64,000 bases of DNA, taken from Mustelus asterias. Taxonomy: Eukaryota. Below, piece after piece: positions 39,701 to 42,700 of the stretch. The DNA is taken from positions 121,086,001 through 121,150,000 of the forward strand of contig NC_135809.1 in NCBI RefSeq assembly GCF_964213995.1, in the 5' to 3' direction. The translations under genes were made by a program, and so were the position numbers. Every line of letters starts with the position of its first letter. Within the stretch, counting starts at the first letter, position 1. The notes below the pieces were generated by a model. The model did no database searches. It was not told the DNA's origin and saw only the letters and a program-made list of their open reading frames with translations.

Positions 39701-42700
39701 GGTTTCAATCTCATCTGCCTGGATTCCTGACTCTGCACTAAGGTTAATGCACTCTTGTACCAACTATCAAGCACCATTTTAGTTCTTCAGCCAAGGCGAG
39801 TAAAACAGTACTGTTCCAAGGTGCCCCTTTGCCCCAACAGCCCGCAGCATGGGATCACCAACATTCCACTGCCTTTTCGCTCTGAGGCTTCTTCCAAAAC
39901 TCTTACCACTTGGAGACTGTCAACCACAGCATTTTTACTGTTGGTACCTCTTTCTCCACTCTTTTCCCAAGGGGAGTCTCTTCCCAGTGTTTTCTACCAG
40001 TGTTCTCCTTTTCAGGTAGTTCCTACGAACGCTCTGCTTCCCCAGTGACTCCTTTCCCAGGTTTCTCTCTGGGACTTCTCCTTAGAATCTCTCCCTGCTT
40101 CAGGGTGCCTCTCATTATGATACCCCACACCTGGGTCTTGTGATTTGGTTTTCATGCCCTCTTTCCCCTCCCCCCCCCCCCAAGCAGGCACAAGGTGTAA
40201 TTCGCAATGTAAAAAAATTTCTCCTAATCCCTCTCCCGTTAGTGATAATTTAAAAATCAGTGAATTATTACCAATTCTTAACCAGAGGAAATAATTTTCC
40301 CCACTATCTCACTGAAAGTCTTTCTTGCTCCAGTAAAAATACTAATACCTAGAGTCTCTCCTCAATAATTTGCTATTCCCTATATCTTTAATATCCCTCA
40401 TATAATATGGTGTCTAAAACTGCAAACAGGTTGAGACCTAAACAATGCTTTGCACAATTTTATTTCTTACATTTGTCTCTCGTACACATGATCTCACAGA
40501 AGTTAGAATGTCTAAGGACTCAAAACCATTTGAAAGATCTAAGCTGTAGGTAGGTGCTGATCAAATATAATGGCAGCATTTATAATGTTGGGCATGTTTT
40601 TCCATACTAGAATTAATCTATTTTGATAGTGCAAGCTCTGTTTATAGGGCTAGTTGGTAGGGTACTTGGAGATTCAACATGAATGCTCCAAAGGTGTGAA
40701 GAAAATTTAAAGTTTGGTTTATTTTAACACTAGCTTAATCATTGACCATTTTATCTGTGGGCAACACGCCTATCACACCAAGAATCAGTTTAGTGAACCT
40801 TCATTGGACTTTTCTGAAGGAAAGTAATATCAGTAAAAAGATGCAATTAATTTCAACATTTTTTTGATTGATTTAAAATCAGTAAGACTTTTGAGCTAAA
40901 TGTCATAGCTTAAAAGATAGCCTCATGATTCACATTTTCAAGAAAAACAATCAATAAGTCAATCAGCATTTTTTGATCTAGGAACTTGGGAGAAGATGCC
41001 AGATTTATAAAGTTTATTTATTAGTCCAAGTAAGGCTGACATTAACACTGCAATGAAGTTACTGTGAAATTCCCCTAGTCGCCACAGTCCGGCGCCTGTT
41101 CGGGTCAATGCACCTAACCAGCACATCTTTCAGAATGTGGGAGGAAATTGGAGCACCCGGAGGAAACCCACAGACATGGGGAGAATGTGCAAACTCCACA
41201 CACACAGTGACCCAAGCCGGGAATCGAACCCGGGTCCCTGACACTGTGAGACAGCAGTGCTAACCACTGTGCTACTCGACCACAGTTTACAGCAGTGCCA
41301 GTTATTGTGGAATGTTAGAATTATTTTTCCATCAACACAAAGGAATATAGACAGGTTGAGTGAATGGGCAAGAAAAAGGCAACAAAAACAGAAAGTGCTG
41401 GAAAATCTCAGCAGGTCTGACGGCATCTGTGGAGTGAGAATAGAGCCAATATTTCGAATCAGAATGACTCTTCGTCAGAGCTGGCAAAATGACAATACAA
41501 GTGCGAAGTTGTTCACTTTACCATGAAAAACAATACTTTTAAACCAGTGAGAAATGTTGGCAGAGGGACCTGGGTATCCTTGTACACAAATCATAAAGTT
41601 TAGGTACAGCAAGCAATTAAGTAAATGGTATGTTAGCCTTCATTACAGAGGGATTGGAGTATGAGAGCTTATTACTGCAATTTGTACATGCCTTGGTGAG
41701 ACTACAACTGAAGTGTTGTGCACACTTCTGGTCTCCTTACCCATGAAAGGATACAGTTACTTTGAAGAGAGTGCAATGAAAGCTCACTGGACTAATTTCT
41801 GAGATAAGGGGATTGTCCAATGGAGAAGAAATTTACTTGACTGGGCCTGTGCTCTCTCTCAAATTTAGAAGAATGAGGTGATTTCATTAAAATATTTAAA
41901 ACTCTTAAAGGGATTTGCCAGGGAAGATTCCTAAGGGCTATTTCCCTGACTGGGGAATCTAAAACCCAGGGGATCACAGTCTCAGACTAAGTAATCAGCC
42001 TTTTAGAACTGAGACCAGGATAAATTTCTTCACTCAAGGGTCATGTTTGGAATTCTCTACCTCAAGAAGCTGTGTATGCTCAGTCATTGAGTATATTCAA
42101 GACAGAGACCGTTGGATACTAACGGAACATGCAGGTGTCCGGGAAAGTGGAGTTAAGCAGAAGGTCAGTCAGTCATAACCGTACTGAACGATGGAGCAGG
42201 TTCTAAGGCCTGAATACTGCAAATACTGAATGCCACTTCTGTTCCTACTTCTCATGTTCTTAAAAATTTGCTATTCACAAGGGTGAAGAACTGAATAGTC
42301 ACAAAACTAGTTATACTTTGAACAGAAAAGTAAATAATATTGTTACTTGGCATTTTGAAAGAAACGAGGATTGTAAACCATTTGCACACAACACACAGCG
42401 CAAAAAACTTACGTGCTGTAGAAGTCCACCAGAAAAGTAGCAGAAAATAGAGAATGTTATACATCAGTTACATATTTCAATGAGAGAAAGGTAGTAAAAT
42501 TATATTCAGGAGAATTTAATATTCCCTACTAAAATAAATTATGAAAAGCTCATGTTGCAAAATGGAATCAGTGCATAGAAAGTGTAAATTTTCCATGTAA
42601 AAAAATCTAAGCACCCAACACTATGAAAGGTGCTTTGAATCTTAGAGTAATAGCAACCAAATTAAATTATATTTTGTTGTGCTGCACATGTTATTCTATT

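Follow-up and report, generated by a model that had tools for sequence, protein, structure and literature searches.

A candidate three-nucleotide exon in shark liprin-alpha-1

The window (the whole 64,000-nt stretch of Mustelus asterias DNA analysed here) carries on its minus strand the gene for liprin-alpha-1 (PPFIA1), a synapse scaffold protein, and it is this gene that hosts the CAC microexon described below. The public M. asterias liprin-alpha-1 model aligns with the window exon by exon, and the gene product contains the liprin coiled coil 2 and SAM domains (Pfam). Two exons flank the intron under study. The upstream one (43747..43897, minus) ends in DEPLK and has two tandem acceptors, which place its start at either 43897 or 43894. 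The downstream one (35811..36034, minus) begins with VQTLNEQ and extends into the GIT1-binding single alpha-helix; the sequence that it encodes shows 100% identity to many entries from sharks and rays named liprin-alpha-1 or liprin-alpha-1-like and 92-93% to those from reptiles and marsupials. The DEPLK/VQTL junction falls past the coiled coils and ahead of a helix matching the GIT1-binding peptide in PDB 6IUH; the GIT1-binding helix of liprin-alpha is described in a section of PMC8044993. Elsewhere in the gene, an exon at ~16200-16270 (minus) is of the insertion kind that the same section calls absent from liprin-alpha-1, and it is included in many non-mammalian alpha-1 models. The intron preceding the upstream exon contains a GC-rich tandem array (46424-46881) with stop-free repeats in three frames.

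The host intron (36035..43746, minus) is 7,712 nt long and of phase 0. The original prediction placed within it a 3-nt exon coding for a single His. We locate this exon at 42413..42415 on the minus strand, where CAC stands between CAG and GTAAGT, 1,331 nt into the intron and 6,378 nt before its end; the flanking sequence quoted with the prediction runs from 42527 to 42385 on the same strand. Both neighbours are in phase 0, as had been stated, and the exon boundaries at 43747 and 36034 leave DEPLK on one side and VQTL on the other, making CAC a phase 0-0 cassette. Its acceptor CAG occupies 42416..42418 and its donor GTAAGT 42407..42412, the latter matching the consensus CAG/GTAAGTAT at 9 of 11 positions, versus 6 of 11 for the donor of the upstream exon. 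The stretch without AG, put at about 108 nt, is exactly 108 nt long (42418..42525, minus; the previous AG is at 42527) and contains pyrimidine tracts. Within it lie a predicted branch point motif, CTGAT, at -52 (42463..42467, minus), and UCUC at -38 followed by UGC at -27 (42440..42453, minus), a predicted SRRM3/4-type intronic enhancer by the definition given in bioRxiv 10.1101/2024.09.17.613571; the element has a single UGC. The downstream flank (42384..42402, minus) is UG-rich, as claimed, with seven UG dinucleotides at +11 to +27. The description of the DNA as non-repetitive also holds: the site has one match in the genome, and the repeats within the window stop at 42099.

None of these elements is rare alone; the combination is. 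The motif YAG-NNN-GTRAG is found at least once in 379 of 1000 Markov introns, and the host intron itself has four AG-free runs of at least 100 nt. The motif together with an AG-free zone of at least 100 nt occurs in none of the 1000 Markov introns, and among the 14 YAG-NNN-GTRAG sites in the window CAC alone has an AG-free zone longer than 40 nt.

Inclusion and skipping in sharks and other vertebrates

Spliced transcripts were sought in 21 listed sequencing runs, available as contigs only and coded without tissue; none is recorded as RNA, and RNA status was taken from contigs that join exons. Eight of the 21 were compared over 42270-43950, and seven of these have contigs joining the upstream to the downstream exon. 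The seven contig sets, from different organisms, comprise one that includes the microexon (X5) and six that skip it (X17, X18, X1, X4, X9 and X11). The X5 contig (4,082 nt, depth 35) comes from a related organism, 95-99% alike to this genome. It departs from the upstream exon at precisely 43747, and CAT (His) comes next, ahead of the GTC-CAG of the downstream exon; the six skip-form sets depart at 43745, with the skip junction. X17 and X18 are one sample and are 99+% alike to this genome. Inclusion is not seen in their contigs, a format that drops minor forms, and the extra residue is in none of the seven public isoforms named Mustelus asterias, whose exons match the window. The junction search proposed with the original prediction has therefore succeeded in the related shark and not in the sample that matches this genome. 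Inclusion in M. asterias we infer from the related shark's RNA, and we regard CAC as very probably a real exon of this species. The same contigs also report on the TAG-CAG tandem acceptor of the upstream exon (43894-43900, minus): six of the seven sets start that exon at 43897, which adds a Ser, and X18 starts it at 43894; X17 and X18, one sample, disagree here.

A further run, X19, acts as a relative's DNA and spans the intron with two contigs (90-95% and under 90% alike). Its sole difference at the microexon is 42413 G>A, which turns CAC into the synonymous CAT and gives cag-CAT-gtaagt. Among the differences listed, none lies in the acceptor CAG, in GTAAGT or in UGC, and a T>C change at 42463 keeps the CTRAY form of the branch point motif. 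Substitutions affect 4 of 149 intron nucleotides near the site versus 34 of 518 (p 0.047; Fisher p 0.05-0.13 over windows), a comparison that uses 38 places listed up to 42936 and in which two further windows gave p 0.09 and 0.13; among the differences listed, local intron conservation is not clearly above background.

To follow the junction across vertebrates we read it in 505 liprin proteins, assembled from searches that ranked insert-bearing proteins first and from cluster members, a biased set whose counts are not frequencies. The insert is His in 37, Arg-His in 127, Asn in 8, Gln in 14 and Val in 2; 293 proteins have none, and 24 are unreadable. The His form comes from 12 species (paddlefish, two toads, Nanorana, a gecko, a tortoise, ostrich, a duck and four passerines); the skate Amblyraja has Asn, and teleosts ranging from Denticeps and salmonids to fugu and cichlids have Arg-His. 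Models with and without the insert coexist in Polyodon, Sphaerodactylus, Amblyraja, Esox, Takifugu and Denticeps, all public isoforms being pipeline predictions. Many relatives have the skip form only, including all 14 listed turtle and all 14 listed lacertid/anole cluster members. Arg-His is present in 11 of 14 listed Esox cluster members, and such frequent teleost models could mean broad inclusion. The Arg-His of teleosts (proteins P0298-P0389 and cluster members) would imply a lengthening of the exon in this lineage, from 3 to 6 nt.

A tandem splice site (NAGNAG or GTNGT) was considered and rejected as the source of His and Asn. Tandem acceptors add NAG (Lys, Gln, Glu or stop) and tandem donors GTN (Val); CAY and AAY are neither, and so His, Asn and Arg-His are not tandem-site products. 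Gln and Val could be, and were left uncounted for that reason. The 14 Gln inserts are from Callorhinchus and Stegostoma. The acceptor of the downstream exon (36035-36040, minus) resembles NAGNAG, reading GAG-TAG in alpha-1 and GAG-CAG in alpha-3. It may account for these isoforms, and the junction would then have a second source of one-residue inserts.

In mammals the picture differs: an insert of this kind is in none of the 18 mammal-named proteins, a count kept apart from 18 sheep/deer fragments in which the junction is unreadable. Four records with ferret as their second label, P0341, P0342 and P0344 with the insert and P0581 with none, are cichlid by first label and sequence, not mammalian. 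Five horse models (P0158, P0159, P0161, P0163 and P0164) have an extra Ser ahead of the junction Lys (DEPSSK). The sheep/deer records P0001-P0017 and P0110 hold multiple copies of the liprin exon, several of them joined to Frizzled-family domains (PF01534), which probably reflects either a segmental duplication in ruminants or an artefact of annotation. For a look-up in a published mouse table we used coordinate ranges of Ppfia1 and Ppfia3 that we take to be correct. Within these ranges, the portion of Table S1 of PMC7821500 covered (MicroExonator, made to find exons of at least 3 nt) gives exons of 27 and 30 nt for Ppfia1 and of 27 nt for Ppfia3, and no 3-nt exon. Loss of the exon in mammals appears likely from these comparisons.

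The genome encodes four liprin-alphas. Best matches to PDB 6KR4 and 6KIP identify the gene on C21 as liprin-alpha-3, and it also weakly matches the 4UWX alpha-3 peptide. In the same intron as the alpha-1 exon, with DDPSK before and VQTL after, its sequence holds a paralogous 3-nt His microexon candidate, cag-CAT-gtaagt (G000:C21:4274607-4274609, minus; L012:1608-1610). This site has an AG-free zone of 75 nt, contains UCUC repeats and shows UGC twice, at -22 and -5. The 445,782 nt scanned contain 26 YAG-NNN-GTRAG sites, of which 3 pass an architecture filter (AG-free zone of at least 35 and pyrimidine fraction of at least 0.6, thresholds chosen after both sites were known), and two of the three are the alpha-1 and alpha-3 exons; dinucleotide shuffles yielded a passing His site in 4 of 10,062 and 6 of 9,557 cases. 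No 3- or 6-nt site passes in the corresponding alpha-2-like (3.1 kb) or alpha-4-like (~9.7 kb) introns, these two names being inferred. Since the His site is common to alpha-1 and alpha-3 and lies in the same intron, the exon would be older than their duplication, which presumably belongs to the early vertebrate genome duplications.

Conservation of cag-NNN-gtaagt had been suggested as a check on the exon, and the site is indeed kept in X19 shark DNA, in jawed-vertebrate isoforms and in the paralogue liprin-alpha-3. CAC is thus what is generally called a microexon: a segment within the 3-27 nt range, set between canonical AG and GT inside an intron, frame-preserving and conserved, present in the spliced RNA of the related shark X5, and existing in both included and skipped forms.

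Splicing control and competing explanations

Our preferred explanation, in which we have good confidence, is an alternatively spliced His cassette that is shared with liprin-alpha-3 and is likely neuronal via SRRM3/4. The microexon is likely an ancient splicing switch and probably neuron-enriched; neural control by SRRM3/4, judged from sequence features, is somewhat better than an even prospect. By default the exon would be skipped, being too short and having too weak an acceptor context (a distant branch point, and GGTGG near the AG). An eMIC-type factor acting on UCUC…UGC would lead to use of both the strong GTAAGT donor and the acceptor, and the codon would be kept. SRRM3/4 targets are characterized by a strong donor, a set-back branch point and UCU/CUC…UGC, as described in parts of bioRxiv 10.1101/2024.09.17.613571 and PMC4387716. 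The shark exon combines its 9/11 donor with a predicted CTRAY at -52, the 108-nt AG-free zone and the UCUC (-38) and UGC (-27) pair between branch point and AG.

The gene also holds orthologues of two mouse Ppfia1 microexons that were clustered as neuronal, of 30 nt (30488-30459, minus) and 27 nt (15193-15167, minus). TGCATG lies upstream of the 30-nt one. Among the few assembled-contig proteins, the 30-nt exon is present in one with the insert and absent from the three skip forms that extend far enough to reveal it. The predicted isoforms say nothing on joint inclusion with other neural exons, the models being combinatorial. In zebrafish, a 3-nt event, DreEX0057320, loses 19.9 PSI in srrm3/4 mutants (PMC12626424, material covered in part). 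Its ID falls between those of ppap2b and ppfia4, and its row, among the 4 of 23 matching rows listed, has no gene name. No ppfia gene is among the 708 zebrafish neural exons in the supplement of PMC12626424, a weak negative, with ppfia4 missing as well.

The main competing explanation accepts a real microexon and makes it non-neural or independent of SRRM3/4, for example muscle, endocrine or broad, and we consider it possible although distinctly the less probable. Cytohesin-1 and -2 have 3-nt microexons with 76% and 69% inclusion in HeLa cells (PMC6314551, in the part covered), so microexons of this length need not be neural. The run with inclusion, X5, is coded without tissue; ppfia is not in the zebrafish neural-exon list; the share of Arg-His among teleost models is high; and the alpha-1 exon has a single UGC, at -27. 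Against a broadly used exon are its skipping in six of the seven contig sets, the occurrence in both paralogues of UCUC…UGC, a long AG-free zone and a strong donor, and the drop of DreEX0057320 in srrm3/4 mutants. An exon that is real in relatives and vestigial in this shark, never included, is improbable. Skipping alone in X17/X18, the absence of inclusion from all seven matching public isoforms and a Leu that in this shark replaces a conserved Ser two residues ahead of the insert would all fit such decay; however, the splice signals are all intact, the codon is still His and the close relative X5 includes the exon, and contigs prove presence, not absence.

The original prediction itself offered a recursive-splicing-like site as an alternative, one that would aid removal of the long intron by re-splicing and leave no residue. 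A strong acceptor and a strong donor three bases apart within a 7.7-kb intron are what brought it up, but the AG is followed by CAC and not GT, so that the donor is not rebuilt and the adjacency of AG and GT that defines such sites is missing. Moreover, the three bases are retained in mRNA (X5) and the His codon is conserved through a synonymous change; we rejected this alternative as very improbable. Hardly any credence is due to a chance motif, with the one-residue isoforms coming from tandem splice sites or annotation error. The core motif is frequent in random introns (379 of 1000), the 14 Gln inserts may be NAGNAG products (GAG-TAG in alpha-1, GAG-CAG in alpha-3) and the two Val inserts are consistent with donor read-through, but His, Asn and Arg-His are impossible that way, and both the spliced X5 contig and the paralogous site speak against chance.

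Protein context, a possible LC8 motif and known systems

We built an AlphaFold2 model of the His-bearing ostrich protein P0133 from a 30-sequence alignment; its mean pLDDT is 51.8, a low confidence. The His is residue 332, in a segment (278-337) with pLDDT below 50, and a helix starts at 338, six residues after it. Coiled coil 2 precedes, and the GIT1-binding helix follows, the predicted disordered linker in which the residue would lie. A spacer is favoured over histidine chemistry because His, Asn and Arg-His all occur. Most likely the insert alters the register of a short linear motif, with the probability of a spacer or motif-register role evenly poised.

A specific version of the register idea, which is speculative and which we regard as improbable, is that the exon is a one-residue switch building an LC8 (DYNLL)-binding motif in liprin-alpha. 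The motif, [D/S]-K-X-[T/V/I]-Q-[T/V]-[D/E] (PMC3078936, in the part covered), was chosen after the fact. Its anchor [TVI]-Q-[TV] is present as VQT, the sole such triplet in P0139 and in P0273, and the surroundings of the insert are predicted to be disordered (pLDDT below 50). The skipped form P-S-K-V-Q-T agrees at 4 of 7 positions, with Pro at -4, the included form S-K-x-V-Q-T at 6 of 7, and the teleost 6-nt form K-R-H-V-Q-T at 5 of 7. A basic residue stands at -3 only with the insert (K in the H, N and Q forms, R in the teleost form), the position being Ser or Leu when the exon is skipped. The rules given in parts of PMC6607443 call for a polar residue at -4, for D/E/P at +2 and for no Pro ahead of the anchor. 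The liprin sequences deviate from these with disfavoured residues: every form has Leu at +2, the 3-nt form has Pro at -5, and in this shark Leu occupies -4. Many anchor-bearing peptides do not bind LC8, according to the same paper. In one duck model the anchor is broken (VKT). A liprin-alpha/LC8 report was not found in the literature searched, including sections of PMC8044993 and PMC12803091. The switch, if true, would explain why x is His or Asn and why a basic -3 residue is kept in the teleost version; liprin-alpha would then be linked to LC8 in neurons of non-mammalian vertebrates, a switch that would be lost in mammals. The genome also has a dynein light chain match that lacks introns and carries one stop codon (L003, G000:C23:35037265-35037471), probably a processed pseudogene.

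Microexons are a well described class, and automatic models from other species already include the His isoform. Torres-Mendez 2019 reportedly included the elephant shark and may already list the exon. RefSeq-type liprin-alpha-1 isoforms of tortoise (XP_032632394.1), paddlefish (XP_041131594.1) and skate (XP_032894610.1) have an identical insertion point; these are automatic models, not a described exon, and the models that match this window are without the insert. The exon is undescribed in the literature searched, which includes portions of PMC7821500, PMC13281805, PMC12221596 and bioRxiv 10.1101/2022.04.02.486809, and VastDB or supplements may list it. A 3- or 6-nt ppfia1 exon was not found in the covered parts of the supplements of PMC12626424, PMC9303857, PMC13281805 and PMC4317164, nor was 'ppfia' in the main text of PMC12626420. 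What is added here is an exon of minimal length that gene models matching this genome miss, together with its history: it is common to two paralogues, spans one codon in sharks, paddlefish, amphibians and sauropsids but two in teleosts, and seems to have disappeared from mammals. Because catalogues of microexons are mostly based on human and mouse, they probably under-represent ancient exons that mammals have lost. The natural states of zero, one and two residues make this a clean test case for a one-residue exon.

Among known liprin-alpha microexons, those of mouse Ppfia1 (27 and 30 nt) and Ppfia3 (27 nt) belong to the same family but lie in other introns and are longer; a 12-nt retina exon of chicken PPFIA1, GgaEX1045355 (PMC9303857 supplement, in part), and a zebrafish ppfia4 microexon, DreEX0057348 (PMC13281805, in part), are also on record. 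The closest class is that of the neural SRRM3/4 (eMIC) microexons of 3-27 nt, as far as described in parts of PMC4387716, bioRxiv 10.1101/2024.09.17.613571 and PMC12626424. The shark exon is the same kind of minimal frame-preserving cassette and shares with them a strong donor, a distant predicted branch point, UCUC…UGC, a synaptic scaffold as host and conservation in jawed vertebrates. Unlike the mammal-anchored eMIC sets, it is apparently absent from mouse. Its neural inclusion and SRRM3/4 dependence are predicted, and its length varies, sharks and tetrapods having 3 nt where teleosts have 6. The nearest precedent in size is the 3-nt glycine microexon of cytohesin-1/2/3 (PMC6314551, in the part covered), which likewise encodes one residue, is common to paralogues and is conserved. 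The cytohesin exon lies in a loop of the PH domain, where it switches lipid binding, whereas the liprin exon would sit in a predicted disordered linker where His, Asn and Arg-His are tolerated.
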